Part shown: positions 1 to 25,769 of the stretch, piece after piece
Layout: each line of letters begins with the position of its first letter
How positions within the stretch are numbered: the first letter of the stretch is position 1
IMG/VR virus record: IMGVR_UViG_2684623171_000008
DNA: 35,933 nucleotides
DNA from: a virus
Taxonomy: Duplodnaviria > Heunggongvirae > Uroviricota > Caudoviricetes
Reading direction: 5' to 3' (one strand)
The notes under the pieces: model-generated
What the model was told of the DNA's origin: nothing
Seen by the model: the letters and a program-made list of their open reading frames with translations, nothing else
The model's database searches: none
Translations under genes and position numbers: made by a program

Positions 1-141
1 TTACTGCTTACACTGTAAGAACGCCGCAAACTCCGCTCCCCAGAAGCTCATCCGTATTTCGCACAGCGAACCGTGCAGCATCCAGATGATGAGGATTGCC
101 GTCACGCAGAACGTGATGGCCGTAAGCGATTTTTGCGACAT
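1..141 (-). CDS. Hok/Gef-family type I toxin-like small membrane protein (46 aa, MSQKSLTAITFCVTAILIIWMLHGSLCEIRMSFWGAEFAAFLQCKQ)
   Basis: Own translation of the minus strand (ATG 141..139, TAA 3..1); ORF too short for the supplied track. N-terminal hydrophobic helix plus SLCEIR and AAF motifs resemble Hok/HokA. Confidence 0.5.
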   Translation of the reverse strand: MSQKSLTAITFCVTAILIIWMLHGSLCEIRMSFWGAEFAAFLQCKQ

Positions 142-271
142 AGCACTTGCTCCTTTTCCGGAGAGGCGCTAACCTTTCACTTGTCAAGGTAATGCGGTTA
201 GGGCCTCGGTTAAACAGAAATGTTTTCCGGGGCCTTTCCACATCTGGCCTTCGGGTATTCCCTCCGACCAT
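8..271 (-). CDS. Possible Mok-like overlapping frame covering the Hok-like ORF
   Basis: Track ORF of 87 aa in an alternative frame that overlaps the whole hok-like ORF, as mok does in hok/sok loci. No independent support. Confidence 0.2.
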   Translation of the reverse strand: MVGGNTRRPDVERPRKTFLFNRGPNRITLTSERLAPLRKRSKCYVAKIAYGHHVLRDGNPHHLDAARFAVRNTDELLGSGVCGVLTV

Positions 272-331
272 CAGCCGAAAGGCACCCGCGCGTAATCTAT
301 CGCTTTTTTGTTACTCCGGCAATTCTGCCTG

Positions 332-592
332 TTAATTCTGAGGTAAAGGCAAACTCATCTGGTTGTTTCCCCTGTGCGAAGCTGGCAGCTCATTCCACGG
401 GATGCCCTCTGAAGAGTGAACGCCGGGAGCGTGTTTCGATGTGAATTTATGGAAAGCCTCCAGTGTTGAGAAGCATACGCCGCATTCCAGATTGTTACAC
501 TGGTAATATTTTTGCCGCACTGTGTTTGAATCATTTTCCGGACGACTGGTGCGGATACGGGCAGATGCGCCACAAAGCGGACAACGGAACAT
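332..592 (-). CDS. ogr: Ogr/Delta-family zinc-finger late-gene transcription activator
   Basis: Begins MFRCPLCG...YYQCNNLECG, the Cys4 pattern of P2 Ogr; AAGGGAGG RBS upstream; lies downstream of D as in P2. Confidence 0.8.
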   Translation of the reverse strand: MFRCPLCGASARIRTSRPENDSNTVRQKYYQCNNLECGVCFSTLEAFHKFTSKHAPGVHSSEGIPWNELPASHRGNNQMSLPLPQN

Positions 593-752
593 AGCGACCT
601 CCCTTAACGTGATGCTGCCGCTATTCTAAGTTGTACTGACTCAGACTCCAACCGTTAGTCCGCTTTGAATGGTAAATGGAATTGTTTTCTCTTCAGAATT
701 AACTATAAAAATGCATTGTATTCAATAAGTTACCATCTAATGATTTGTTATC

Positions 753-1358
753 TTATTTAGGTTCATCATAAATTTCGTTTCCATCTTCATCCCTATATCC
801 CTGTAGTCCTGTGAGGTAATCAACAAAATATCCATTCCCTAAATCGGCTTCATGTTCTACCTGATTACTTGTAAAGTACTTTTCGGAAGACATATTCAAA
901 TTATTTGGAAGATGTGTCGAAGGCTCTTCACACCATGATGGTAACTTTTCATCAGGCTTCTGATGTCGATTAAAATTGTTATACAAATCTTTAGGGCATT
1001 GATAGCGGCTTATTCCGTCAAATAAAAACTCGTGAGTTACACATGAGGGATAGTGATTATTGATAAATGATTCCACTAAACAGGCAACTTCTTCAGGGTG
1101 CACAGAAAAACACTCACTTTTACTGCCGGTGCTAAGGTGACGTATACGCTTAACACCAGGTTGAGACTCAAGATATACCAAAAGATTAGACTCAATCTCA
1201 TGAACATCACCGTCTATGATGTTATAAGCAGTGTAAATAAAGAACCCTGGGTTCTGGGATGAGACATGTCTATTCTGCAGACCGCGAGTTGTTTTTCCTA
1301 CTTTTGACCATTGGTGATCATTAATATTAGCACCAACATATATCCAGTTATTGCTCAT
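753..1358 (-). CDS. T5orf172/GIY-YIG-like domain protein (cargo gene between D and ogr)
   Basis: N-terminus WIYVGANIN...KVGKTTRGLQNR fits the IY-(N10)-KIGxT-R pattern of T5orf172/GIY-YIG domains; AT-rich gene with its own upstream promoter-like sequence; no P2 counterpart at this position. Confidence 0.55.
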   Translation of the reverse strand: MSNNWIYVGANINDHQWSKVGKTTRGLQNRHVSSQNPGFFIYTAYNIIDGDVHEIESNLLVYLESQPGVKRIRHLSTGSKSECFSVHPEEVACLVESFINNHYPSCVTHEFLFDGISRYQCPKDLYNNFNRHQKPDEKLPSWCEEPSTHLPNNLNMSSEKYFTSNQVEHEADLGNGYFVDYLTGLQGYRDEDGNEIYDEPK

Positions 1359-1394
1359 ACAGTTCTCTTATTATGGGGAAGAAATACCATGAAA

Positions 1395-1422
1395 ATTTTA
1401 TCGTTTATTGGGTTGTGTTCAA
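1395..1422 (-). promoter_or_regulatory. Putative sigma70 promoter for the cargo gene (TTGAAC-N16-TAAAAT on minus strand)
   Basis: Hexamers read on the minus strand, about 35-65 nt upstream of the ATG at 1358. Confidence 0.3.
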
Positions 1423-1510
1423 GAAATTAATGTAGAGTGAATTGTCTTAATGAGCTTAGTGTGCGCAATAAATATACTGACTTAGGTCTGAGTAAGGGCA
1501 TCTAAATTGC

Positions 1511-2620
1511 TCATTCTGTTTCCGCTATCCATTCCGGGATTTTGGCTTCAAGCTCAAGCTGCGTGGTAAAGCCGCTGTTATCAATGGTGTGCTCGGCTTT
1601 TGCAATAATCCAGTCCTGATTGTCGATGTCACTTTTGAAGCCTGTCACCGTGCCATGCATTTCAGGGTAGAGTTCTGCACGTCCACGCGCCAGCGTGATG
1701 GAGAATGATGCGGCTCCGCGTTGTAGTTGCTGCCACTTTGCCGCCGCTGCACGCCTTGCTGCCTGCTCGTTCTGGTAAGTCTTGCGTAACACAAACACAT
1801 TGCCTGCCGCACCTTCCATATAATCACCTTCACGGCTGCTGCTTTTCTCCTTTTTGGGTTTTGGCGGTTTGCGGCGTTTCACGCTGACTTTTTTCTTTTT
1901 CCCGTAATTAAGATCAAGCCAGTAAGCGCGTACCCCCGTATACGCTTCGCGGTCAGCAATGCGGAACTGATGGCGATCGCCGCTGCTGCGTGTGATGGCG
2001 AACGAGGGCAACGGCTGGCCCTGTGCATTCACGCCACCGCCGGGCATGATGAATAACAGATTACCGCTTTTTACCGTGGTGATTGCGCCCAGCATTTCCG
2101 CCATGCGTGTAAGGAAGGACATGTCGCTTTCTTCGGTCTGGTCGGCGTGGTCGATTTCAATATCCATCAGCATTTCGCTGATTTGCGGTTTCAGACCGTA
2201 CCGATGAGCGATGGCGGATACCACGCGCTCAACGGTCACATCATGCCAGGACACCTCACGTTTAACGTTAAATTCATCCCGAAAATCTGCGCTTCTGGCT
2301 GAAACAGTCAGCCTGTCGGGCGGTCCTTCATGAGCAATTTCATCAACAATGTAAGTGCCTTTTTCTGTCAGCGGTTCTCCTTTCCAGCCAATGAGAACCG
2401 TCAGGCGCGCGCCCCGTGGCGGTAGCTGCAACTGACCATCCGCATCATCCAGCGTGATGGCGATCTGGTCTGCCTCAAATCCCCGGTTGTCGGTCAGCGA
2501 CAGGCTCATCAGGCGCTCCGCCACGCCGGACAGCGTTTTACCCTCCGCGAGAATATCAAAATCCGGCATTTTTACGGGGTCTGTGCTCTGACTGAGCAAT
2601 TGCATGGTGGTGTCGGTCAT
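1511..2620 (-). CDS. D: Tail protein D (P2 gpD-like)
   Basis: Resembles P2 gpD from MTDTTMQLLSQ onward; start set at the internal ATG at 2620 preceded by GGGAGG, not the longer track ORF. Confidence 0.85.
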   Translation of the reverse strand: MTDTTMQLLSQSTDPVKMPDFDILAEGKTLSGVAERLMSLSLTDNRGFEADQIAITLDDADGQLQLPPRGARLTVLIGWKGEPLTEKGTYIVDEIAHEGPPDRLTVSARSADFRDEFNVKREVSWHDVTVERVVSAIAHRYGLKPQISEMLMDIEIDHADQTEESDMSFLTRMAEMLGAITTVKSGNLLFIMPGGGVNAQGQPLPSFAITRSSGDRHQFRIADREAYTGVRAYWLDLNYGKKKKVSVKRRKPPKPKKEKSSSREGDYMEGAAGNVFVLRKTYQNEQAARRAAAAKWQQLQRGAASFSITLARGRAELYPEMHGTVTGFKSDIDNQDWIIAKAEHTIDNSGFTTQLELEAKIPEWIAETE

Positions 2621-2777
2621 CTGTTCCCTCCCTGTGCGGCATGGTCGCATGTGCGTGCGGAGGGGGTTACTGCTTTTTGTTGTCGCCGTGGCGGGAGAAT
2701 GGCGCAGGGGTGAGATTACGCGCGTGGTGGGTGATGATTGTTGCCGAATCATTTAACGGATACAAGGGGGTGAAGCT

Positions 2778-3962
2778 ATGAGTGAAACTCGTTTTCATGG
2801 TGCCCGTGTTACGGAAAATACCGACCTGGTAACAGCGATTAACGATGTTGATTCCAGCGTTATCGGTATCGTGGCAACGGCGGATGATGCGGACGCGAAG
2901 CTGTTCCCGCTGAACAAGCCCACACTGCTGACCCGCGTCAATGACGTGCTGGGAAAATGCGGAACAACGGGGACGCTTTATCGTGCGCTTAAGGCCATCG
3001 CAGACCAGGTGAGCACAAAGGTGATCGTCGTTCGCGTGGCTGAACACAAAGAAGAAGACGGAAAGACGCAGGATCAACTGGTTATCGGTGGTTCTGAGGA
3101 TGACGGCAGCTATACGGGGATGTATGCGCTGCTTGTTGCAGAACAGGATGAAAGCATCGGATACCGTCCGCGTATTCTGGCCGCGCCGGAGCTGGACACG
3201 GAGGCGGTGACAAAATCCCTGTGCGTGATTGCGGGTAAGCTGCGCGCGTTTGTGTATGCCTCATGTCACGGCTGTAACACGATGGCTGAGGCGATTACCT
3301 ACCGCCAGAAATTCAACGAACGTGAGGTGATGCTCTTATGGCCGGACTTCATCGCCTACAACCCGAAAAGTGGCAAAAACGAAACGTTCCCCGCGCCTGC
3401 CTATGCGTGCGGCCTTCGTGCGTACATTGACCATGAGCAGGGCTGGCACAAATCGCTGTCCAACGTTCCGGTTAAAAATGTGCTGGGAATGTCCAGGCAT
3501 GTGTTCTGGTCGTTGCAGGCCGAAGACAGTGATGCCAACAGCCTCAACAACAAAGAAATCACGACCATTATTCGTCGCAACGGGTTCCGCTTCTGGGGCA
3601 ACCGCACACCGGAAACGAACGCCTACATCTTTGAGGTGTATACCCGAACCGCACAGGTGCTGGCTGATTCAATTGCGGAAGCGCAGTTTGAAACCATCGA
3701 CAGTCCACTGACGCCTGCGAACGTGAAGGATGTTATCAGTGCCATCAGGGCAAAACTGGATTCACTGGTTACTGCCGGGAAACTGATTGGCGCGTCGTGC
3801 TGGTATGACGTGGTGGATAACAGCACCACGGATTTACGTCAGGGGCGTGTGCGTATTCGCTACAAATATACGCCCGTTCCTCCGCTGGAAGATATGGAGC
3901 TTTACCAGACGTTTACTGATGAATACTTTGATCCCGCATTTGCGGTGTTGGGAGGTGTCTGA
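2778..3962 (+). CDS. FI: Contractile tail sheath protein FI
   Basis: 394 aa; conserved P2 FI stretches (FPLNKP, LRAF.YAS, GWHKSLSNV, RRNGFRFWGNRT, YTPVPPLE). Confidence 0.9.
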   Translation: MSETRFHGARVTENTDLVTAINDVDSSVIGIVATADDADAKLFPLNKPTLLTRVNDVLGKCGTTGTLYRALKAIADQVSTKVIVVRVAEHKEEDGKTQDQLVIGGSEDDGSYTGMYALLVAEQDESIGYRPRILAAPELDTEAVTKSLCVIAGKLRAFVYASCHGCNTMAEAITYRQKFNEREVMLLWPDFIAYNPKSGKNETFPAPAYACGLRAYIDHEQGWHKSLSNVPVKNVLGMSRHVFWSLQAEDSDANSLNNKEITTIIRRNGFRFWGNRTPETNAYIFEVYTRTAQVLADSIAEAQFETIDSPLTPANVKDVISAIRAKLDSLVTAGKLIGASCWYDVVDNSTTDLRQGRVRIRYKYTPVPPLEDMELYQTFTDEYFDPAFAVLGGV

Positions 3963-4474
3963 TGGCTGTACCAAAACATCTTCGCTTTTTTACGCTGTTT
4001 GTGAATGGTGAAAACGAAGTGGGTAAGGTGACGTCCGTCACTCCACCTAAACTGACGCGCAAAACTGAAAGCTATCGTGGCGGTGGCATGATGGGGGCGG
4101 TGAGTATCGACCTCGGTCTTGATGATTCTGCGCTTGATGCGAGTTTTGTCATGGGGGGCGCAGTTCGTGAGCTGTTCCTTAAATATGGCGGCACGATTGA
4201 CGGCACGTTGCTGCGTTTTGCGGGTGAATACTACACCGATGCAGAAAGTGATCTGTATGAAATCGAGATGCGCGGGCGTGTGACGGAAATTGATATGGGG
4301 GAAGCCAAACAGGGCGAAGCCACATCACACACTTACGCTGTCAAAAACACCTACTACAAGCTGAGCGTTAACGATCGTCCGCTGTGGGAAATCGACCTGC
4401 TGAACCACATCTACCGGAAGGACGGCAAGGACATCGTGCCTGATCGCATCCGTTCCGCGCTTGGGCTTGGCTGA
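3962..4474 (+). CDS. FII: Tail tube protein FII
   Basis: 170 aa; ATGA overlap with the FI stop; P2 FII-like. Confidence 0.9.
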   Translation: MAVPKHLRFFTLFVNGENEVGKVTSVTPPKLTRKTESYRGGGMMGAVSIDLGLDDSALDASFVMGGAVRELFLKYGGTIDGTLLRFAGEYYTDAESDLYEIEMRGRVTEIDMGEAKQGEATSHTYAVKNTYYKLSVNDRPLWEIDLLNHIYRKDGKDIVPDRIRSALGLG

Positions 4475-4528
4475 TAAGTAATATGCAGGCGGCGCAGTGC
4501 GCCGCCTCTGACTGAAAGGAGTTTCCTG

Positions 4529-4894
4529 ATGAAAGAGACGAAAAACATCGATACCGAAAACACGGTAGTTGCTGACACTGTGAAAGAAACCAGTGAGCGT
4601 GGCGTAAAACTTACCCAACCAATTGAGCGAGGCGGCGAAAAAATCACGTATGTGGAGATCACCGGGGCTATTGAGCAGGCTGGATCTCTGCGAGATTTGT
4701 CGCTGTCTGATGTGCTGAATCTGAAAGCGGAATCCATGTTTACGCTGCTGTCACGCGTGACATCACCGCGACTGGATGAAGTGACGATCAAAAAAATGGC
4801 ATCCCGTGACTTTATTCAGTTATGTGTGGTTGCCGTAAATTTTTTGAGCGGTGCGGACTCTGGCGGGAAGAACGAACAGGCGACGGAAGCCTGA
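4529..4894 (+). CDS. E: Tail assembly chaperone E
   Basis: 121 aa; AAGGAG RBS; sits between the tube and tape-measure genes and contains the slippery site. Confidence 0.8.
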   Translation: MKETKNIDTENTVVADTVKETSERGVKLTQPIERGGEKITYVEITGAIEQAGSLRDLSLSDVLNLKAESMFTLLSRVTSPRLDEVTIKKMASRDFIQLCVVAVNFLSGADSGGKNEQATEA

Positions 4895-5058
4895 TCACGG
4901 TTGTGTGCTTTGAGCACATAGAAGACTTTGTGGCAGATATTGCCGTTATTTTTAACTGGTCGCCCGCCGAAATCTTCATGATGACGCCCGGCGAAGTGGT
5001 TAGCTGGCGTGAGCGGGCGGCACTTCGCAGCGGGAATGCAGACAATGAAGACTCTTGA
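4529..5058 (+). CDS. E+E' frameshift fusion product (-1 shift at 4840-4846)
   Basis: E frame to the slippery site, then the -1 frame (track ORF 4822..5058) to TGA at 5056-5058. Confidence 0.65.
4840..4846 (+). other. Programmed -1 frameshift slippery heptamer T_TTT_TTG (E to E')
   Basis: Codons AAT TTT TTG in the E frame; the -1 frame stays open to 5058. This is the heptamer used by P2 E/E'. Confidence 0.7.
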
Positions 5059-7852
5059 TATCCGGGTCGCTTTCAGCGCCGTTGACAGGCTGACCCGACC
5101 TGCAGAAAACGCACGCCGCCTGATGGGGCAGTTTGGTGACTCCATCCAGCGAACGCAGGGGGCGATCAAAAATCTCGAGCGTCAGGCGCGTTCATTTGAG
5201 CGCGCCCGCGACGCTGTCAGTAAAGCGGATGCGGGTATCGTGAAAGCACGACGCCAGCTTAACGCCCTTAATCAGTTACAACGCACGGGTACAGTGCTCA
5301 GCGAAAAACAACAAAAGCTGATGCAGCAGTTAAGCACCCGGCTTGAACGCCTGAATGAATCGCGCACACGGGAAATTCAGAAAATGCGGGAGCTTGGCGG
5401 AGAGCTGAAACGCCACGGCATTTCCCTGACAGGCAGCGATAACACCATCCAGCAGGCCATCAGACGCACCGAACAGTACAACAACCAGCTTGAACGCGAA
5501 CGGCAGGCGCTTGCGCGTGTAACGCGGGCGCGTGAGCGGTATTCGCGCGCACAGGAAACAGCGGGAAAACTGAAAACAGGTGGTGCGCTGGCAATTGGTG
5601 CGGCAGCTGCGGGCGGCTATGCTGCCGGGCGTTTTTTGCAGCCTGCGATCGGGTTCGGGAAAGAGATGTCCCGCGTTCAGGCACTGACGCGAATCGACAA
5701 AAACAGCCCGCAGTTTAAGGCGCTGCGTGAGCAGGCGTTAAAACTTGGCTCTGAAACGCAGTTCACCGCAGGCGATGCCGCCAGTGGGCAGGCATTTCTT
5801 GCAATGGCTGGTTTTACTCCGCAGGCCATTCAGGCTGCGCTTCCCGGCGTGCTGAGCATGGCAACGGCTGGCGGTATGGATCTCGGCGAGACGGCGGATA
5901 TTGGCTCAAATATCCTGACGCAGTTCGGCCTTTCTGCTGACCAGATGGACCGGGTCGGTGACACACTTACCGCAGCGTTTACCCGTACCAACACTGACCT
6001 TCGCGCACTGGGTGAAACCATGAAATATGCAGGTCCGGTGGCGGGCAAGCTGGGAATATCGCTGGAGCAGGCCGCAGCGATGGCGGGCGTACTGGCGAAT
6101 ATGGGTATCAGGGGAAGTGATGCCGGGACGGCAATGCGTGCCAGCCTGGCTCGTCTGGCATCACCGCCAAAGGCGGCGGCAGAAGCTCTGAAAGAGCTGG
6201 GCGTGTCCGTCTCTGATGCGAACGGCAAAATGCGCCCGATGGAGGATTTGCTGGCCGACCTTTATAAAGCCACCCGCAAATACGGGGAAGTTGACCGGGT
6301 ATCGTTCTTTAAGGACATTGCCGGAGAAGAGGCTTTCACATCATTTATGGCCCTCGTTGATGCGGCAGGTGACGGCTCCTTACCTAAACTGAGAAAAGAA
6401 CTTGAAGGCGCGCGCGGTGAGGCTGAGCGCACGGCAAAGGTTATGGCCAACAACCTTGACGGCGATCTGAAATCACTCGGCAGTGCATGGGAAGGGTTGC
6501 GCATCCGCATTGCAGATCTGATTGACGGTCCGCTGCGTTCTGTCACGCAGTGGCTAACGCGGGTGGTCTCAAAGGTGACGGCACTGGCGCAGGCCCATCC
6601 TGTACTGACGCGCCAGCTACTGATTGCAGGCGGTGCGCTGCTGGCAGTGACTGCAACCGTAGGCTCGTTGTCGCTTGCTCTTGGTGTGCTTGCTGGCCCA
6701 CTGGCAAAACTGCGTCTTGGTTTTTCCCTCCTGACCGGATCAATGAATGCTGTCAGGCTCCTGCCAGCACTATGGGGAATGGTGACGGGTTCCGTTTCTT
6801 TGCTGGGGGGTGCTATCGGGGCGCTGTTCAGTCCGGTTGGTCTTATCGTGGCTGCGCTTGCCGGAGCTGCCGTTCTTATCTGGAAATACTGGGATCCCAT
6901 CAGGGCATTTTTTGCCGGGGTGTTCAGCGGGATTATGGAAAGGCTGGCCCCGTTGCGCGAAACCTTTGAACGGTTTGGTTCTGTTTTTGACGCAATCGGA
7001 AGCGGGATCAGCCAGGTGTTTAACTGGTTTAAATCGCTGCTGTCACCGATGGAGTCCAGCAAGGAAACGCTGGATAAATGTACCAGTGCTGGCGAGATAT
7101 TCGGTAACGTTCTTGGCGGTGCGTTACAACTTGTTCTGACGCCTGCAAAAATGCTACTGGATACGCTGGCGTGGATACTTGAAAAACTTGGCGTCCTTCC
7201 GGATGAAGCGGAAAGGGCGCGCAAGAAAATCGAAGACGCACAGCGTGCGGCCATTCTTCAGGACAAGGTTGCCTTGCTTCAGGGGGACCTGGCGAAAATC
7301 AATCCGCCGAAGCCTGTGGAAAATGGCAATGGCACCGGAGGTGATAAACCCAAAGACAACAAACCGCTCACAGACAGCAATACCGGTACGCTACGCAGAC
7401 TCAGCAAAATTGCTGATAACACAGGTAAGCTGGTTGATGAGACGAAAAAACGCATTGGCCCCGGCGATATTGTCTTTAAGAACCTGCCCCGCGCACTTGC
7501 TGTTCGTGGGGAGTGGCAGGAGCGGAAGATTGCGCAGGTCAGTAAGCCTGCTTCCGCAATCAACATCACACCCGTGGTCCCGACTCCTCTGCCTCCGGCG
7601 CTGGTCCCTGTTGTTGCGGCCAGCTCCCGCCCGGTGGCGGAGGCCATACGATCGCCAGTGGCATCAGTTCCTGCAACTTCCCGTAACCGGGAGCCTGTTG
7701 TCTCCGGATTTGGCGGTGAAATTCATGTTCATCTGCATAACGTTGTTACGCAGAATCCCCGCGAACTGGCGAAACTGGTCGGTGAAATGGTCAGGGCAGA
7801 ATTGGAACGACGCGACCGTGCCGGACGTGGCAGTTTTTACGATAAAGATTGA
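5036..7852 (+). CDS. T: Tail tape measure protein T
   Basis: About 940 aa; coiled-coil N-terminus, central hydrophobic/Gly-Ala-rich region; overlaps the E' end. Start uncertain (5009, 5036 or 5045). Confidence 0.85.
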   Translation: MQTMKTLDIRVAFSAVDRLTRPAENARRLMGQFGDSIQRTQGAIKNLERQARSFERARDAVSKADAGIVKARRQLNALNQLQRTGTVLSEKQQKLMQQLSTRLERLNESRTREIQKMRELGGELKRHGISLTGSDNTIQQAIRRTEQYNNQLERERQALARVTRARERYSRAQETAGKLKTGGALAIGAAAAGGYAAGRFLQPAIGFGKEMSRVQALTRIDKNSPQFKALREQALKLGSETQFTAGDAASGQAFLAMAGFTPQAIQAALPGVLSMATAGGMDLGETADIGSNILTQFGLSADQMDRVGDTLTAAFTRTNTDLRALGETMKYAGPVAGKLGISLEQAAAMAGVLANMGIRGSDAGTAMRASLARLASPPKAAAEALKELGVSVSDANGKMRPMEDLLADLYKATRKYGEVDRVSFFKDIAGEEAFTSFMALVDAAGDGSLPKLRKELEGARGEAERTAKVMANNLDGDLKSLGSAWEGLRIRIADLIDGPLRSVTQWLTRVVSKVTALAQAHPVLTRQLLIAGGALLAVTATVGSLSLALGVLAGPLAKLRLGFSLLTGSMNAVRLLPALWGMVTGSVSLLGGAIGALFSPVGLIVAALAGAAVLIWKYWDPIRAFFAGVFSGIMERLAPLRETFERFGSVFDAIGSGISQVFNWFKSLLSPMESSKETLDKCTSAGEIFGNVLGGALQLVLTPAKMLLDTLAWILEKLGVLPDEAERARKKIEDAQRAAILQDKVALLQGDLAKINPPKPVENGNGTGGDKPKDNKPLTDSNTGTLRRLSKIADNTGKLVDETKKRIGPGDIVFKNLPRALAVRGEWQERKIAQVSKPASAINITPVVPTPLPPALVPVVAASSRPVAEAIRSPVASVPATSRNREPVVSGFGGEIHVHLHNVVTQNPRELAKLVGEMVRAELERRDRAGRGSFYDKD

Positions 7853-7858
7853 GGAGTC

Positions 7859-8353
7859 ATGGCCATGATGATGATCTACGGCATGTTTGTTTTTGAGCTG
7901 CGCACATTGCCGCATCAGCAGTTACAGCAAAATAAAAGCTGGCGGCATGTGAAAAATGAACGCGTTAACCGTTCAGCAAGCTGGCAGTATATCGGGGCAG
8001 GCGATGATCGCATCGTGCTTTCTGGTGTGCTTTATCCTGAAATCACAGGTGGCGAAGTGTCGCTGTCGCTGCTGACCACGCAGGCGTATACAGGACGCCC
8101 CTGGCCTCTGATTGATGGCGTCGGACAGATTTACGGCATGTATGTACTGACTGAAACGAATACGACCCGCTCCGAGTTTGATCGCTACGGTAAGGCGAAA
8201 AAGATAGAATTTTCACTGACTCTTGAACGCTGTGATGAGGATTTGCGGGAGCGCCTGCAATCCTCATCGTTCAGTGATATGCTGTCCGGCTTCAAAGATA
8301 AGGTCACATCATCCCTTAACAGCGCGGCCAGCTCCGTTAAAGGGCTGTTTTGA
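7859..8353 (+). CDS. U: Tail protein U
   Basis: About 160 aa directly after T; P2 gpU-like. Start may be ATG 7865, which has better GAGGAG spacing. Confidence 0.8.
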   Translation: MAMMMIYGMFVFELRTLPHQQLQQNKSWRHVKNERVNRSASWQYIGAGDDRIVLSGVLYPEITGGEVSLSLLTTQAYTGRPWPLIDGVGQIYGMYVLTETNTTRSEFDRYGKAKKIEFSLTLERCDEDLRERLQSSSFSDMLSGFKDKVTSSLNSAASSVKGLF

Positions 8354-8360
8354 TTAACGC

Positions 8361-8390
8361 AAAACCGCTAATGGTCAGATTAGCGGTTTT
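8361..8390. terminator. Perfect 12-bp-stem hairpin between convergent U and invertase (bidirectional terminator-like)
   Basis: AAAACCGCTAAT-GGTCAG-ATTAGCGGTTTT; overlaps the invertase stop codon; T-rich flank on the plus strand. Confidence 0.5.
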
Positions 8391-8979
8391 CATTTTCCTG
8401 AATCTGCCTGATTGTTTCTTCAGCCTGTATATCGCCTACAGGGTGATAACGATAAATCGTCGATATGCCGATGTCGTAAATGATCGCCAGTTGTTTCCTG
8501 TCATGACCGTTTTTAATCAGCCTCGCTATTTGCTCGTGTTGTTCTTTTGTCAACTTCGGGCGACGTCCGCCAATGCGTCCTTGTGCGCGTGCTGCTGCCA
8601 GCCCGGCCAGTGTACGCTCTACAATTAATTCACGTTCCATTTCGGCTAAAGCTCCCATGACGTGAAAAAAGAAACGCCCCATGGGTGTTGATGTGTCAAT
8701 GCTGTCCGTCAGACTACGGAAATTAACACCTTTTTCCCGCAATTCCTCAATAAGCGTGATCAGGTGTTTCATACTTCTGCCCAGTCTGTCCAGCTTCCAG
8801 ACAACCAGCGTATCTCCTTCTGATAGCGTTCTGAGCAGTTTTTTCAATCCCGGTCTGGCTGATTTCGTTCCGCTGATTTTATCTTCAAAAATCAGTTCAC
8901 ATCCTGCGCACTCCAGCGCGTTACGCTGCAATTCTGTATTCTGGTCATTTGTTGATACGCGGACATAGCCAATAAGCAT
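8380..8979 (-). CDS. Serine-recombinase DNA invertase (Gin/Pin/Cin/Hin family)
   Basis: 199 aa; MLIGYVRVSTNDQNT...VVWKLDRLGRSMKHL...GRIGGRRPKLT, with catalytic Ser region and C-terminal HTH; GGGGA RBS. Confidence 0.9.
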   Translation of the reverse strand: MLIGYVRVSTNDQNTELQRNALECAGCELIFEDKISGTKSARPGLKKLLRTLSEGDTLVVWKLDRLGRSMKHLITLIEELREKGVNFRSLTDSIDTSTPMGRFFFHVMGALAEMERELIVERTLAGLAAARAQGRIGGRRPKLTKEQHEQIARLIKNGHDRKQLAIIYDIGISTIYRYHPVGDIQAEETIRQIQENENR

Positions 8980-9034
8980 GATGGATCCCCTGAATAAAAA
9001 CCGGGGATGATGCCAGTTAGCCGTAATCTCTGCA

Positions 9035-9060
9035 TTTTCTTAAACGTTGGTTTGGGAGAA
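9035..9060. other. Invertase crossover site A (gix/hix-like 26 bp, 12-2-12)
   Basis: TTTTCTTAAACG-TT-GGTTTGGGAGAA; its reverse complement shares 14 identical bp (TTCTCCCAAACCAA) with site B. Confidence 0.65.
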
Positions 9061-9420
9061 GCGGCAAAACGGGATGTGGGGACAGGGGAAAATCAGATAC
9101 CGGACATGGCCTCTTTTGCCAGTGGTGATGGGTGGATGAAATTACCCAACGGGAAAATCCTGCAATATGGTCGTGGTGCGGTTACGCCGACATTATCGAC
9201 GCAAACAATGAGAATTACATTCAGCATCCCTTTCCCCAAAAAAGCGGACTGCGCCATGCTTACTCATTCTGGTGATGGCGGTGCGCCTTTAGGCGCTGGG
9301 CGAGGGTTCGTGATGACTGCAGAAGGCCCAACGTTAACCGGCTTTAATTCTGCTTACAGAACGTCATCAACCAGCGACACGGTATCGATGAATTACAGTT
9401 GGTGGGCTGTTGGTGAGTAA
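9049..9420 (+). CDS. Alternative (currently unfused) tail-fibre C-terminal segment, expressed only after inversion
   Basis: Open frame from site A (..GLGEAAKRDVG...) to the stop at 9420, in the same frame as H relative to the shared GLGE codons; the track ORF start at 9007 is not a real N-terminus. Confidence 0.55.
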   Translation, partial: GLGEAAKRDVGTGENQIPDMASFASGDGWMKLPNGKILQYGRGAVTPTLSTQTMRITFSIPFPKKADCAMLTHSGDGGAPLGAGRGFVMTAEGPTLTGFNSAYRTSSTSDTVSMNYSWWAVGE

Positions 9421-9431
9421 TTTTATTCAGG

Positions 9432-9884
9432 GTGATTTATATGAACGAATATGTTTATAGCGCAAGGCATAATGCTTTTTTCCCTGTGGATATGATTGAT
9501 AAATATAAATCAGAGGGATGGGATTTATCAGACGCTAAGGAAGTAAATCAAAATATTATCAGTGAGTTTATGGCTGAACCGCCACAAGGAAAAATCCGTA
9601 TTGCCGGAGATGATGGGCTGCCTGCGTGGGCAGATATTCCTCCACCCACGCATGAAGAGCTTATTGAAATTACTGAATCAGAAAGACAGCTACTAATTAA
9701 CCAGGCCAACGAATACATGAACAGTAAGCAATGGCCCGGTAAAGCCGCTATTGGTCGTCTGAAAGGTGAGGAACTGGCGCAATATAATTTGTGGCTGGAT
9801 TATCTGGACGCACTGGAACTGGTTGATTCCTCCAGTGCGCCAGATATTGAATGGCCTACGCCTCCGGCAGTTCAGGCCAGATGA
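9432..9884 (+). CDS. Tail fibre assembly chaperone, alternative copy (tfa')
   Basis: 150 aa; C-terminal APDIEWPTPP tail resembles the other tfa (APDVIWPELP); lies inside the invertible segment. Confidence 0.7.
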   Translation: MIYMNEYVYSARHNAFFPVDMIDKYKSEGWDLSDAKEVNQNIISEFMAEPPQGKIRIAGDDGLPAWADIPPPTHEELIEITESERQLLINQANEYMNSKQWPGKAAIGRLKGEELAQYNLWLDYLDALELVDSSSAPDIEWPTPPAVQAR

Positions 9885-10458
9885 CATCCGGCGCGGTGCT
9901 GGTATCTGTTGCCGTCACCGCGTCAATGTAATCCAGCACAGCGTTAAGTCGGGTGGTTTCTGCCTGCGTCAGTTTACGTCCGGCCTGCAATTTCAGTTGA
10001 ATCAGACTGATGGAAGCCATTGCAGTATCAATCAGCGACTGGCGCTGTGCTTCTGCCGCTTCTACTGCGGTACCGTGTTGTGCCTCAGTATCTGTCACCC
10101 ATTTTTCACCATCCCATTTATCGTATGGCGTTAACGGGGCGATAGTGGTTGTATTTTCGGGATAGTCGCCTAGTGCTGTGATTTCTTTGGCATCTCCCGT
10201 TTCGGTGTTATAGACGATTTCACCGCGATGGTCTGACACATATTCCCATGATTTTAAATCCACAGAACGGCAAATTGTATAACCAGCCTTAGATGTAACA
10301 GGAGCGTCTAAACAGGAATATGCTGGAATACCGACACCCACAGCAAGATATTCAGTTGATGCAGAAATATACTCCCGTGTTTCACCATCATAGTTATAGA
10401 CAGTAATATTCCCCGCCTTCGTGGCAATAAGCTCGCCATTTAATACAGCGTTATCCAT
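9856..10458 (-). CDS. G: Tail fibre assembly chaperone (P2 G-like), currently expressed copy
   Basis: 200 aa immediately downstream of H; its 3' end overlaps tfa' convergently by 29 bp. Confidence 0.75.
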   Translation of the reverse strand: MDNAVLNGELIATKAGNITVYNYDGETREYISASTEYLAVGVGIPAYSCLDAPVTSKAGYTICRSVDLKSWEYVSDHRGEIVYNTETGDAKEITALGDYPENTTTIAPLTPYDKWDGEKWVTDTEAQHGTAVEAAEAQRQSLIDTAMASISLIQLKLQAGRKLTQAETTRLNAVLDYIDAVTATDTSTAPDVIWPELPEA

Positions 10459-12092
10459 TATGCAGCCCTCACGATATAGTTAAATGCAATATTCCGTGGA
10501 CGAGTTTCATTTATCCCATATGCTGTTGTTCTCTGATTCCCGACAAAATATCCATTTGGATTCGAAGATACATAGTAATCATCAAAATCAAGTGGACTAT
10601 CAGCGCCCGGAGTCAGACTGGCAATATATCCTCTACCCATAACTTCTGATGCTGGTATTTCTTTTGTACGATAATCACTGACTCTGAATATCTGCCCCTG
10701 ATGAGTATGTAATTCTACCCCTCCATTCTGAAGACTTAGCAAGGCACGTACAGCATCAATACCACGCCCGTCATCCCAGCCACGAATAAACTCACCACGT
10801 AAATCAGGCAATTTATTTGTCGGATAAGCCTTTGCCAGTTCCGGGTATTCTTCAGCAGAAAAAGCGGCACCGTTGCATTTCAGCCAGCCTGTTGGCGGAG
10901 TGGCTGAAGGCCACGGAACAGGCACCCCAACCGGTAATGCAGAGCCTTCTCCCAAACCAAGGTAATCAAGAACTCCCTGAGTGCTGGTTTTACCAAGAAT
11001 GGCACGTCCAACACTTGTCAACGCGGTTAACGCGGCACGATCTGCCCCTGTAAAATATGGGAGTTTATCTGCTGATGTAGCAAGCTCCGCCAGCGCCGTC
11101 AGGGTGGCATCCTTCGGTTGCTTACCCGCAAGCGCGTTAGTCATGGTGGTCGCAAAATTCGGGTCATTGCCCAGCGCCGCAGCCAGTTCGTTCAGCGTGT
11201 TCAGTGCATCAGGTGACGAATCTACAAGTGCGGCAATCGCGGCCATAACGAAAGCCGTGCTTGCGATCTGGGTACTATTAGTTCCCTGTGGCGCTGTTGG
11301 TGTTGTTGGCGTTCCGGTCAGTGCCGGGCTGTTTAATGGTGCTTTCTTGTTCGTTTCATCCATTACCACCTTAACAGCTTTTGGTGTCGCTGCCAGCGTT
11401 TCAGACGTGCTGTTCGTGGCGCTACTGAGCTGAACAATCCCTTTTTGTATAGTGGTGGCGTTCTGGGCGGTATATTTCCCGTTAGCCAGGTCATATGCAG
11501 CCTTAACCGCTTTCGGTGTTGCGGCCAGTGTTTCTGATTCACTGTTAATTGCACTGCTTAACTGAGTAAAACCTTTTGCGGTCAGCGAGGCGTCCGGGTG
11601 ACGTCGTGACTGTTCGTGCTCTGAGATTTTATCATCCACATATTTGCGGGTTGCCAGAACCACAGACGGGTCGATTTTCAGCGTGATAGCTTCGGTGTTC
11701 GTGACAACCAGAATCATGCGGATAGTCTGGGTGCGTCCACTGCCTTCCTGCAACTGCGGTTTGTACGTTTCCGGGCAGTTTGCCACCGCAATGAGTACAC
11801 CTTCATCATCATAAAGACCAATCTCACGGATCCAGAATCCTCCCTCGTTTTCAGGGATGATTTGCTCCGCAATAATCTGGCTCTGATTGTTAGGGTCAAC
11901 ACTCAGAAGATTCAGCGGTGCAATGCGTTTCTGGTTAATCAGTTTTGTTTGTGCAGGGTCTGGTGTTGGTAACACACCATTTGCATCACCAACGGCCATT
12001 TGCGTCAGATTCAGCTTACTGCCGAGCATCGTCGCGTTAGCCAGTCGTGCTGCGCCCTGATTAGTCAGAATGGCGTAGTATTTCACTGTCAT
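10458..12092 (-). CDS. H: Tail fibre protein H (constant N-terminal part plus currently fused variable C-terminus)
   Basis: 544 aa; long stretches close to P2 H (DPSVVLATRKYVDDKISEHEQSRRHPDASLTAKGFTQLSSA...). Crossover site B lies at codons ..DYLGLGEG.. Confidence 0.9.
   Translation of the reverse strand: MTVKYYAILTNQGAARLANATMLGSKLNLTQMAVGDANGVLPTPDPAQTKLINQKRIAPLNLLSVDPNNQSQIIAEQIIPENEGGFWIREIGLYDDEGVLIAVANCPETYKPQLQEGSGRTQTIRMILVVTNTEAITLKIDPSVVLATRKYVDDKISEHEQSRRHPDASLTAKGFTQLSSAINSESETLAATPKAVKAAYDLANGKYTAQNATTIQKGIVQLSSATNSTSETLAATPKAVKVVMDETNKKAPLNSPALTGTPTTPTAPQGTNSTQIASTAFVMAAIAALVDSSPDALNTLNELAAALGNDPNFATTMTNALAGKQPKDATLTALAELATSADKLPYFTGADRAALTALTSVGRAILGKTSTQGVLDYLGLGEGSALPVGVPVPWPSATPPTGWLKCNGAAFSAEEYPELAKAYPTNKLPDLRGEFIRGWDDGRGIDAVRALLSLQNGGVELHTHQGQIFRVSDYRTKEIPASEVMGRGYIASLTPGADSPLDFDDYYVSSNPNGYFVGNQRTTAYGINETRPRNIAFNYIVRAA
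10947..10972. other. Invertase crossover site B inside H (gix/hix-like 26 bp)
   Basis: Plus strand TTCTCCCAAACC-AA-GGTAATCAAGAA; inverted relative to site A with identical central dinucleotide (TT in the H reading direction). Confidence 0.65.
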
Positions 12093-12697
12093 GCGTTTAC
12101 TCTCAGATTATCAATTAAATGAATGGCCGGGGCAGGGAAATAATCCCCTTCGACAATAATGGACTCCGGGGTGTAGGGATAAACCGTCAGGGCATCGCCG
12201 TGATAGCATCCCGTACCAACGAAAATCTTTCCGTTCACACTCAGGCTGATCGCCAGCCCCGTCAGATGGCGACTTACTGGTTTTGCATCCGCAATAAGGC
12301 GCTCAAGTTCCTGATACATTTCATCGGTGATGCCCTGATCAAGTACTCCGACAACAATGCGAAATGTTCCTGGCTCCTCGTTGAGTTGCCACCACTCCTT
12401 TACTTCAATCAGGTAGCCGAGAGGCTCCACGGCTCTTCGCAGTGCGCTGATGGTCCCTTTGTGTCGGTGTATCAGCCATGCATCACGAATTACCTGTCGC
12501 TTTGTCTCTTCCGGCCAGTTGCGATCCCAGCGGTCAACGGAAAACGCCCAGGCGAGATAAGGCAGCAGATGCACCGGGCAGGTGTCCGGCGACCACAGCG
12601 TGTTGAGGTCTACCGGAATGTCTGTAATGCGTGTTCCGACGGCTTCGGCACAACGCATGAAATTGCTGGCTGATGGTGGTAACAACGAATTACTCAT
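12089..12697 (-). CDS. I: Baseplate assembly protein I
   Basis: Follows J and precedes H; start set at ATG 12697 (MSNSLLPP.., GAAGGTGGA RBS) rather than the longer track ORF. Confidence 0.75.
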   Translation of the reverse strand: MSNSLLPPSASNFMRCAEAVGTRITDIPVDLNTLWSPDTCPVHLLPYLAWAFSVDRWDRNWPEETKRQVIRDAWLIHRHKGTISALRRAVEPLGYLIEVKEWWQLNEEPGTFRIVVGVLDQGITDEMYQELERLIADAKPVSRHLTGLAISLSVNGKIFVGTGCYHGDALTVYPYTPESIIVEGDYFPAPAIHLIDNLRVNA

Positions 12698-20420: not shown

Positions 20421-20574
20421 AGTTTTTGCCCCTCTGACTGGTTCTTCAGTCATGATGGCAAAGCGTAACAGGCTGATACAAAGGGCTTTTGTTGTAAGAA
20501 AACGGCCAGAACAGGGGGTTAAGGAGAACGGTTTCGCGCGCGGGTAATCTTCCTGTAATTACTCAGGGGGAGCA

Positions 20575-24809: not shown

Positions 24810-25769
24810 TTACTCCTTGTCCATTGCGTACAGCCCATTAACCAGAGCAAACTGTGGCACCCCGTCCGCGATGAAAGTCGCATTAACTCCGCAGGCTTCG
24901 CGGATAGCGGGTGCCACAATCTCCGCCCCGCCACCGACAACCATCACCCGCCCGTAACCCGAAAAAACCGCCAGCGCGCGGATCACGCGTTGTTTCAGTG
25001 TTTCTTCCTTTTCACGAATAACCGCCATCAGGCTGGCGTAATGCGCGTCATTGTGGATGTGCTGGCGCAGCCAGGCTTCATTATGGCGATGTTCGATAAT
25101 GGTATTGGCGATGTGGTGACTGGTGCGCATACCGTTAGTGGCCATCACCGACAGTACGGCATCGGCCATAAGAGAAACGCCTACGTGTGGATCGCAAAAC
25201 ACCTGGCTGATACCTGCCAGTTGCCCCTGAACCTTTGCCACATCCAGCGTGGTTCCGCCCAAATCCACAATCAGCAGGGATTCAAACGGACTCATGTCAG
25301 CCAGTGCTTTAAAGCCAGCCGGAATGGATTCAGGCATAACCCGTACGTTACGGATAGTGAATGCTTCGCCGTTCTGGTACTCCACCGGGCGCATGACGTT
25401 CGCTTTTTTGCGGTTGATGTTGGCCATGTCCGGCTGTGCGTTTGTGTCGAAATATTCGCTCAGTGGCAGGGTAACAACCACATCCACTTCCTGTGGCGTG
25501 ATGTCTGATTTGACCAGCGCGTGATGAATGGCAATGACATTCACATCGCTGTACTGGTATTGCGTGTCGGTCGTCTGGACAAAGCGATCGCTGACCGGAT
25601 CAAAACCATAGCGCACGCCATCAAGCATGTAGTTAGCAGGCTGCGAGCCACCGAACGGCGCAGACCATTCCGACTTGAAGCTGTTCGGGCTGATGGCGTT
25701 GCGGCGTTCGCCGTTCTCAGTCCATGCCAGCTTGATGTTGGTGGAGCCGTCGTCGATGTAAATTTTCAT
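24810..25769 (-). CDS. ParM/StbA-like actin-type segregation ATPase
   Basis: 319 aa; MKIYIDDGSTNIKL, LIVDLGGTTLD and VMVVGGGAEI are actin-fold phosphate and adenosine motifs; extensive resemblance to R1 ParM as recalled from memory. Confidence 0.85.
   Translation of the reverse strand: MKIYIDDGSTNIKLAWTENGERRNAISPNSFKSEWSAPFGGSQPANYMLDGVRYGFDPVSDRFVQTTDTQYQYSDVNVIAIHHALVKSDITPQEVDVVVTLPLSEYFDTNAQPDMANINRKKANVMRPVEYQNGEAFTIRNVRVMPESIPAGFKALADMSPFESLLIVDLGGTTLDVAKVQGQLAGISQVFCDPHVGVSLMADAVLSVMATNGMRTSHHIANTIIEHRHNEAWLRQHIHNDAHYASLMAVIREKEETLKQRVIRALAVFSGYGRVMVVGGGAEIVAPAIREACGVNATFIADGVPQFALVNGLYAMDKE

Follow-up and report, generated by a model that had tools for sequence, protein, structure and literature searches.

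P2-like tail gene clusters and the organization of the window

In phage P2 the F operon runs PF-FI-FII-E-E'-T-U-D, with D as its last gene and ogr downstream of D. Late promoters of the P2 type carry an activator box near -55, upstream of a late gene, and the consensus of this box is TGT-N12-ACA (PMC3931495). At the promoter pair PP/PO of P2, one box of the form TGT-N12-NNA is located between the diverging late genes P and O, and the mapped starts at 3016 and 3127 are each 55.5 nt away from it. Invertible segments of the Gin/Cin/Pin/Hin type are represented by the G segment of Mu, the C segment of P1 and the P segment of e14; P2 has no invertase. The closest described relatives of the DNA analysed here are the phages P88, 500465-2, P884B11 and Shae_phiSM. 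Phages with the layout described below are functional, P88 being inducible and lytic and PhiSM spontaneously active (PMC5285337, PMC6456863).

The DNA under study, a viral stretch of 35,933 nucleotides (hereafter the window), came from a P88-like E. coli prophage of the genus Xuanwuvirus, family Peduoviridae. The four phages were 93-96% identical to it at the nucleotide level over most of positions 1-12500. The genus assignment refers to these first 12.5 kb, of which 72% (P88) to 77% (500465-2) were covered at 93.6% identity. The annotations of P88 and Shae_phiSM gave the same order and the same strands as the window for ogr, D, FI-U, the invertase, the fibre cassette, H, I, J and W. E. coli O157:H7 FRIK944 was 100% identical to the window at both the D/FI and the U/invertase junction. 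The P88 group differed from the window in its fibre/invertase cassette, with the invertase 86% and H 64-70% identical, and in the cargo carried between ogr and D.

On the minus strand, ogr (332-592) encodes an Ogr/Delta zinc-finger late-gene activator of 86 aa (52.3 bits with Pfam Ogr_Delta, cut-off 26.3); the overlapping frame 355-573 was rejected as ogr. Between ogr and D lies an ORF of 201 aa and unknown function (753-1358, minus), a cargo gene in a stretch of low GC content (0.38 over 501-1500) that had no match in Pfam, NCBIfam or PADLOC and no equivalent at that place in P88. D (1511-2620, minus; Pfam Phage_GPD) encodes the baseplate hub or late control D protein of 369 aa and shared 97.8% identity with the D proteins of P88 and Shae_phiSM. 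Its ORF stays open to 2752; the start was set at the ATG at 2620, which is used in P88 and Shae_phiSM and aligns with the start in other genera.

The plus strand carries FI, the tail sheath gene (2778-3962; Pfam Phage_sheath_1, Gp18_domIII_N and Phage_sheath_1C), and FII, the tail tube gene (3962-4474; Phage_tube, E = 7e-46). Next come E (4529-4894) and a GpE-domain frame (4903-5058; Phage_P2_GpE), which form a tail assembly chaperone pair and are annotated as two tail proteins in P88. T, the tape measure gene (PhageMin_Tail and P88 annotation), extends to 7852; its ORF is open from a GTG at 5009, and the start equivalent to that of P88 is at about 5045. The tail protein gene U (7859-8353; Phage_P2_GpU) is the last of this unit. 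It converges on a minus-strand gene for a serine DNA invertase of the Gin/Hin/Cin/Pin type (8380-8979; Resolvase and HTH_7), beyond which lie tfa (9856-10458, minus) and the tail fibre gene H (10458-12092, minus; Phage_tail_fib, Phage_fiber_2 and Collar). In the V-W-J-I-H operon, H is the last gene to be conserved before the fibre cassette. FI, FII, E/E', T, U, D and Ogr each scored above the Pfam cut-off, giving a P2-like contractile-tail gene set, and the proteins were 32-49% identical to their P2 counterparts.

Gene families and internal order of FI-U are thus those of the P2 F operon, but the block from PF to U is inverted and D forms a separate, divergent unit. A first-pass annotation of the window had described this arrangement, and the ORF map and Pfam scans bore it out: D and ogr are on the minus strand and FI-FII-E/E'-T-U (2778-8353) on the plus strand. 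The co-directional P2 order H-G...FI-FII-E-T-U-D-ogr to which it had been compared agrees with the GenBank record, and, compared with P2 and all outgroups examined, FI-U is reversed. Given the D start at 2620, D and FI diverge from a spacer of 157 bp (2621-2777). Members of the clade with this order are still placed in Peduoviridae by the ICTV.

A terminator scan found a hairpin at 8361-8390 with a 12-bp stem, an A-run before it and a T-run after it, which is likely to be a bidirectional terminator between U and the invertase gene. The hairpin extends into the final codons of the invertase gene and covers its stop codon (8380-8382). In E. coli relatives without an invertase, the similarity to the window ends at about 8355-8359, and the hairpin is therefore part of the invertase cassette and not of the inverted block.

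Distribution and origin of the inverted FI-U block

Among P2-related phages of enteric bacteria, a large group has the inverted FI-U block as its normal and ancient order. SEN5, Kp4871-3 and Kp4847-1, representing three other genera with D proteins 63-73% identical, had the same layout as the window. Bacterial genomes were surveyed through the best 80 of 433 matches, a sample biased towards Enterobacterales, and 62 of these 80 loci showed the inverted order. The order followed the identity of D to that of the window: at 61% or above the block was inverted (62 loci), and at 53% or below it was co-directional (18 loci). Many inverted loci came from Xenorhabdus, Photorhabdus, Kosakonia and Klebsiella. 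The clade includes the genera Xuanwuvirus, Senquatrovirus, Reginaelenavirus and Reipivirus together with many prophages and tailocin-like loci, and D was on the strand opposite to FI-U throughout. All 65 loci of the clade had the block in one and the same orientation. The co-directional order was found in P2, Felsduovirus, RE2010 and relatives of Pseudomonas, Burkholderia, Mannheimia and Vibrio.

Within E. coli, the D/FI junction was contiguous in 1356 of 5426 complete genomes, or about a quarter. At least 80% of the junction query was covered in 1358 of 1381 E. coli records, and the partial matches among those listed were short fragments or had D truncated by IS30. The first-pass annotation implied a recent or unusual event; this has to be given up, as close relatives have the divergent arrangement as their normal order, a possibility it had itself named. 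The papers on P88, SEN4/SEN5 and PhiSM and two tailocin papers make no mention of the inversion, and no description of it was found in the literature.

Simple neighbour-joining trees with bootstrapping were calculated for D, FI, FII, U, J and V. The split between inverted and co-directional loci was recovered in 200/200 bootstraps for D, 100/100 for FI, 87/100 for FII and 98/100 for U. The trees of J and V did not follow it (0/100 and 26/100, respectively), which indicates that the baseplate module is mosaic, and both genes were dropped as additional clade markers. The trees of D, FI, FII and U point to one ancient inversion. The segment comprising PF, FI, FII, E/E', T and U would have been flipped once, as a block, in the common ancestor of the enteric-phage clade. 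Such an event would have separated D from the rest of the ancestral FI-FII-E-T-U-D operon, so that D, with ogr behind it, now points away from FI. Taken as a whole, the best explanation is a lineage-standard layout that arose by one ancestral block inversion, with D expressed from a predicted Ogr-dependent bidirectional promoter; its probability is put at roughly 85%.

Serine invertase, tail-fibre cassette and alternative origins

Like Mu, P1 and e14, the window has an invertible segment next to its invertase gene. This segment of about 1.9 kb (9037-10970) contains alternative fibre C-termini and tfa genes, and the site scan placed inverted crossover sites at its two ends (9037-9062 and 10945-10970), with an inverted repeat (9044-9061/10946-10963) that is 94% complementary over 18 nt. 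The 5.7-kb FI-U block differs from such segments, as it lacks crossover-like sites at its ends and had one fixed orientation in the relatives examined. No pair of inverted crossover sites of about 26 bp flanked 2621-8392: the best scores at its boundaries were 14/26 (2600-2800) and 13/26 (8330-8400), which is background. A search for inverted repeats across 1-12500 found none that joined the block boundaries, the only meaningful pair being the tail-fibre crossover sites. The absence of a convincing site at either boundary, as stated in the first-pass annotation, was thereby confirmed.

The same annotation had raised the possibility that the adjoining invertase inverted the block. Among the best 80 of 433 matches, an invertase gene adjoined U in only 7 of the 62 inverted loci, and in two co-directional loci it adjoined FI. 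Next to U, no invertase gene is present in SEN5 or the two Klebsiella phages, and the U/invertase junction was present in 620 E. coli genomes versus 1356 for the D/FI junction. The resident serine invertase played no part in the block inversion. The enzyme belongs to an exchangeable tail-fibre cassette, always at the end of the V-H operon, and this position puts it beside whichever end of the F block faces the end of that operon.

It is accordingly very improbable that the invertase recently inverted the block at secondary sites in this prophage or its immediate ancestors. Gin/Hin-family enzymes occasionally act at secondary sites, and the invertase gene does abut the U end of the block, but 65 loci share the orientation and the breakpoints, with D identities as low as 61%, the neighbouring gene is missing from 55 of the 62 inverted genome loci, and the boundaries have neither crossover scores above background nor a linking inverted repeat. 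An assembly error that placed the 5.7-kb block in the wrong orientation had nothing to recommend it beyond the departure from P2 order. It was excluded because the D/FI junction is contiguous in those 1356 complete genomes; the 620 genomes with the U/invertase junction and the identical layout of independently sequenced phage genomes make such an error practically inconceivable. An ancient module replacement, in which another P2-like phage donated FI-U together with the promoter and the unit was inserted in the opposite orientation, deserves more consideration and is still unlikely. P2-like phages have mosaic genomes, the trees of J and V depart from the split, and the tail-fibre cassette is common to unrelated phages. 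Against this, the well-supported split is the same whether the gene lies outside the block (D) or within it (FI, FII and U), and all four are similarly far from P2 (49, 46, 44 and 46% identity, respectively), as co-inheritance predicts; the donor would have to be just as distant as the D gene of the recipient. At this depth an inversion in situ is not strictly distinguishable from an ancient backwards replacement of the FI-U module.

The D-FI spacer and its predicted promoters

The spacer between D and FI contains a P2-type activator box, TGT-N12-AGA, at 2681-2698 (centre 2689.5). It has one mismatch to the consensus (AGA instead of ACA in one half-site), as have the PF and PO boxes of P2 (CCA). 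The distance from its centre to the FI ATG is 88.5 nt, compared with 82.5 nt at PF of P2. Of the 65 inverted loci, 59 had a box, at distances of 74-88 nt from the FI ATG, and the spacers of the P88 group were near-identical to that of the window, box included. Exact matches to TGT-N12-ACA occurred in the window at only two unrelated sites. The form TGTTGT-N12-AGA was found at one other place, the window's own O-P spacer (20490-20510), a count that is no independent test since the pattern was defined after both sites had been seen.

On the FI side, a -10-like hexamer, GATGAT, is located at 2733-2738 (plus strand), where its position relative to the box matches the geometry of P2 PF; it predicts a start site near 2745 for the equivalent of PF, and relatives have a conserved GAnnAT there. 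On the D side, spacings based on D starts estimated by tblastn were too imprecise, the N-termini of D being variable, and an anchored alignment was used instead. A predicted extended -10, TGcGACCAT, at 2641-2649 (minus strand) is conserved in this cross-genus alignment, with a start site predicted near 2634. Among 60 inverted loci, 41 had a TGn+NANNNT motif beginning 35-36 nt past the box, compared with a mean of 1.6 in shuffles, and the figure of 41/60 overstates the number of independent observations, as the loci are phylogenetically related. Between the box and this -10 lies a G+C-rich block (2648-2659) that is conserved across genera and more so than most of the spacer. Read toward D, it is CGCGCGCGCATG as the consensus of the relatives and CGCACGCACATG in the window, and CGCGCG or GCGCGC was present in 48 of the 60 loci. 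Co-directional relatives lacked this D-side block on the mirror side of PF. A scan of 2621-2777 for the sigma-70 consensus gave no match, as expected for activator-dependent late promoters.

Both -10 elements predict starts at 55.5 nt from the centre of the box, the distance mapped at PP/PO. Its sequence suggests that the 157-bp spacer is a bidirectional late promoter that depends on Ogr and resembles PP/PO in construction, the difference being that the pair would drive D and FI instead of P and O. The single dyad-type box would serve both predicted starts, and D, the 201-aa ORF and ogr could be read from the D-side promoter late in infection. D probably has its own late promoter. The earlier proposal that D has left the F operon and needs a promoter of its own is right, and the conserved promoter-like element facing D supports it.

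Expression of D from an Ogr-independent promoter or by other means, with the D-side block serving another role such as the site of a different regulator, is a less likely reading, to be taken more seriously than the alternative origins of the block. Extended -10 promoters can work without an activator, and the D-side element is of this kind; the strong conservation of the G+C-rich block also fits. The fixed offset of the -10, which puts the predicted start at the PP/PO distance from the box centre, argues for Ogr dependence. In P2, the structural tail protein encoded by D is required when the other late proteins are, which likewise speaks against this reading.

It can be proposed, at about even odds, that the inversion was tolerated as D landed by the upstream face of PF, where a dyad-symmetric Ogr box could activate in both directions, and that the clade then fixed the extended -10 on the D side. 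The result would be a second promoter of the PP/PO type and the division of the F operon into two co-regulated units, FI-U and D, possibly with ogr. If true, this would document the fission of an operon by inversion in which a symmetric activator site acted as the buffer; no description of such a case was found in the literature searched.

The tail-gene layout of the window is ordinary for its lineage. The gene order of P2 is not universal in Peduoviridae, as a large and common clade has the unit from the sheath gene to U reversed, and in this clade a departure from P2 synteny does not point to a rearrangement, an assembly error or the action of an invertase. Which way FI-U points relative to D is a clean clade marker and easy to score, and the predicted bidirectional late promoter between D and FI would be a small, testable addition to the model of P2 late regulation.

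Gene order of the window and its relatives

The layout of the window was determined from an ORF map and Pfam scans. Starting at the window edge, the minus strand carries a gene for a 46-aa type I toxin of the Hok/Gef family (1-141; Pfam HOK_GEF, 29.9 bits), ogr (332-592; Pfam Ogr_Delta), a 201-aa ORF of low GC content (0.38; 753-1358) and D (1511-2620; Pfam Phage_GPD). Beyond a spacer of 157 bp the plus strand carries the tail block FI (2778-3962; sheath domains), FII (3962-4474; Pfam Phage_tube), E with the GpE-domain frame (4529-5058; Pfam Phage_P2_GpE on 4903-5058), T (about 5045-7852; Pfam PhageMin_Tail) and U (7859-8353; Pfam Phage_P2_GpU). It is followed by a serine invertase gene on the minus strand (8380-8979; Resolvase and HTH_7), whose stop codon is overlapped by a strong hairpin with a subsequent T-run at 8361-8390. 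The invertible tail-fibre segment, with genes on both strands (9037-10970), is bounded by inverted crossover sites at 9037-9062 and 10945-10970. The genes tfa (9856-10458; Pfam Caudo_TAP), H (10458-12092; tail-fibre domains) and, downstream of H, I, J, W and V, detected by tblastn to their P2 homologues, are all on the minus strand. In the P2 GenBank record the order V-W-J-I-H-G ... FI-FII-E-E'-T-U-D-ogr is co-directional. The ORF map, the Pfam matches and this record bear out the first-pass annotation, which had placed the FI-U block opposite to D and to the P2 order.

Several genes flanking the block have further features of note. At the position equivalent to the toxin, phage P88 carries a 'MokW-like host killing' gene. 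The Ogr homologue has the cysteine spacing C-X2-C-X24-C-X4-C, two residues longer than the C-X2-C-X22-C-X4-C given for P2 Ogr (PMC3931495), and at 86 aa, compared with 72 aa in P2, it also has a longer C-terminal tail. The 201-aa ORF between ogr and D, for which Pfam, NCBIfam and PADLOC gave no match, has the look of a cargo (moron) gene; it would be part of any late transcript running from D to ogr. The tail-fibre segment is of the Gin/Cin type, with ORFs for alternative fibre C-termini on the plus strand at 9007-9420 and 9432-9884. The fibre cassette shares 85-94% identity with those of unrelated phages, among them P1-like vB_EcoM-673R5 and Klebsiella phage KP12.

The first 12.5 kb of the window showed 93-96% identity to phages 500465-2, P88 and P884B11 (Escherichia) and Shae_phiSM (Citrobacter), all of the genus Xuanwuvirus. 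Their annotations place D on one strand and the genes from sheath to U on the opposite one, with the invertase convergent on U. The window element therefore belongs to a genus that is already classified by the ICTV and whose annotated public genomes show the same order, and the gene order is already on record, although no comment on it was found in the literature searched. Of 5426 complete E. coli genomes, 1356, among them E2348/69, IHE3034, O104:H4 and O157:H7, matched the D/FI junction (query 2200-3300) contiguously; in O157:H7 FRIK944 the identity was 100%. This excludes misassembly as the source of the block orientation. The viability of phages P88 and PhiSM (PMC5285337, PMC6456863) shows that the layout is functional.

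Extent and probable origin of the inverted order

A tblastn search with D matched 524 phage records. Mapping of the tail genes by tblastn revealed the inverted block in Salmonella phage SEN5 (Senquatrovirus), where the annotation agrees, and in Klebsiella phages Kp4871-3 (Reginaelenavirus) and Kp4847-1 (Reipivirus), whose D proteins are, like that of SEN5, 63-73% identical to the window D. RE2010 (Felsduovirus; D 53% identical) and P2 (D 49%) are co-directional. For a survey of bacterial genomes, a D alignment was used to scan one genome of each species, and the best 80 of 433 matches were mapped. The block was inverted in all 62 loci with D at least 61% identical to the window D and co-directional in all 18 loci with D at most 53% identical, counts which overstate independent support because the loci are phylogenetically related. 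The hosts of the 62 inverted loci were Salmonella, Edwardsiella, Serratia, Erwinia, Pantoea, Kosakonia, Klebsiella, Xenorhabdus, Photorhabdus, Providencia, Morganella, Yersinia, Hafnia and others. The arrangement is thus ordinary for the lineage, and its interpretation as an unusual event is not supported. Pseudomonas, Burkholderia, Mannheimia and Vibrio supplied more distant relatives; these too were co-directional, so the inverted state is derived.

Two relatives deserve comment. A 226-kb contig labelled Vagococcus sp. WN89Y (NZ_JBQPOM010000071.1) carries a prophage with proteins 97-98% identical to those of the window phage; its assignment to a Gram-positive genus probably reflects contamination or mislabelling of the assembly. 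The prophage of E. coli O157:H7 ECP19-798, the common O157:H7 relative, is defective, since IS30 truncates D, T carries a frameshift and an IS3-family element interrupts the fibre region. Its ParM and partition genes adjoin the replication endonuclease, an echo of the window ORF 24810-25769.

The first-pass annotation had also raised the possibility that the neighbouring invertase caused the rearrangement. The survey did not support such a link, as no more than 7 of the 62 inverted loci among the best 80 of 433 matches have an invertase beside U. It is not beside U in SEN5, Kp4871-3 or Kp4847-1, and it adjoins FI in two co-directional loci; sitting at the end of the fibre module, it adjoins whichever end of the block faces that module. 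In E. coli the U-invertase junction was contiguous in 620 genomes, compared with 1356 for the D/FI junction, and other genomes have different cargo after U; one O157:H7 strain, for instance, carries a serine O-acetyltransferase there. The cassette of invertase and fibre genes also occurs in unrelated phages. Similarity to the phage's real crossover sites was at background level at the two block boundaries (14/26 and 13/26), and no inverted repeat joining them was found. Unlike a site-specific invertible segment, the 5.7-kb block has no crossover sites and has one orientation only among the relatives examined. On these counts the invertase is very unlikely to have played a part in the block inversion.

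Neighbour-joining trees built from tblastn segments recovered the split between inverted and co-directional loci for D (200/200 bootstraps), FI (100/100), FII (87/100) and U (98/100), and D and the block have therefore been inherited together since one event. An ancient module replacement, in which FI-U was inserted backwards rather than inverted in situ, is unlikely: D and FI-U are equally diverged from P2 (44-49%) and their trees are congruent, which argues for inversion in situ. The split was not recovered in the trees of the baseplate genes J (0/100) and V (26/100), and this module has evidently been exchanged between lineages of the two tail-operon types. Between the two groups of mapped loci the identity of some J proteins reaches 77%.

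The predicted promoter in the D/FI spacer

As stated in PMC3931495, which cites Christie and Calendar 1985, P2 late promoters contain an activator box, TGT-N12-ACA. The divergent promoters PP and PO share one such box in the P2 record, at 3063-3080; its distance to the P start (3016) is exactly 55.5 nt, and so is that to the O start (3127). At the FI promoter PF the distance from the box centre is 56.5 nt to the start site and 82.5 nt to the FI ATG. The window spacer contains TGT-N12-AGA at 2681-2698, centred 88.5 nt from the FI ATG, and in 59 of 65 inverted loci a box lies 74-88 nt from this codon. Judged from these positions, PF evidently moved along with the block. Elsewhere in the window TGTTGT-N12-AGA occurs only in the O-P spacer (20490-20510), although this count is not an independent test, as the pattern was defined after both sites had been seen. 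The capsid-scaffold gene O probably starts at its second ATG (20420, MANEKK..., preceded by GAGGGG) and not at 20453; the box at 20493-20510 would then have a plausible start site 55.5 nt away on either side, like its P2 counterpart.

When 36 dereplicated spacers, drawn from many genera, were aligned, the D side showed, in this order, the box, a G+C-rich block with the consensus CGCGCGCGCATG and an extended -10 element with the consensus TGnAAyyAT (TGcGACCAT in the window). The motif TGn+NANNNT begins 35-36 nt past the box in 41 of 60 loci, compared with a mean of 1.6 in shuffles. In co-directional relatives the PF box is retained, but its mirror side has no D-side block. The offset of the extended -10 element predicts a D start near 2634, 55.5 nt from the box centre, and the FI-side hexamer GATGAT (2733-2738) predicts an FI start near 2745.

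The small addition made here is this predicted D/FI promoter with a shared box. On the simplest reading of the sequence, a bidirectional late promoter of the PP/PO type would drive FI-U in one direction and D in the other. The D-directed transcript may extend past the cargo ORF as far as ogr. P2 offers a precedent for late transcription into this gene, since its record annotates one terminator, placed after ogr, for the ogr transcript and for the F operon alike.
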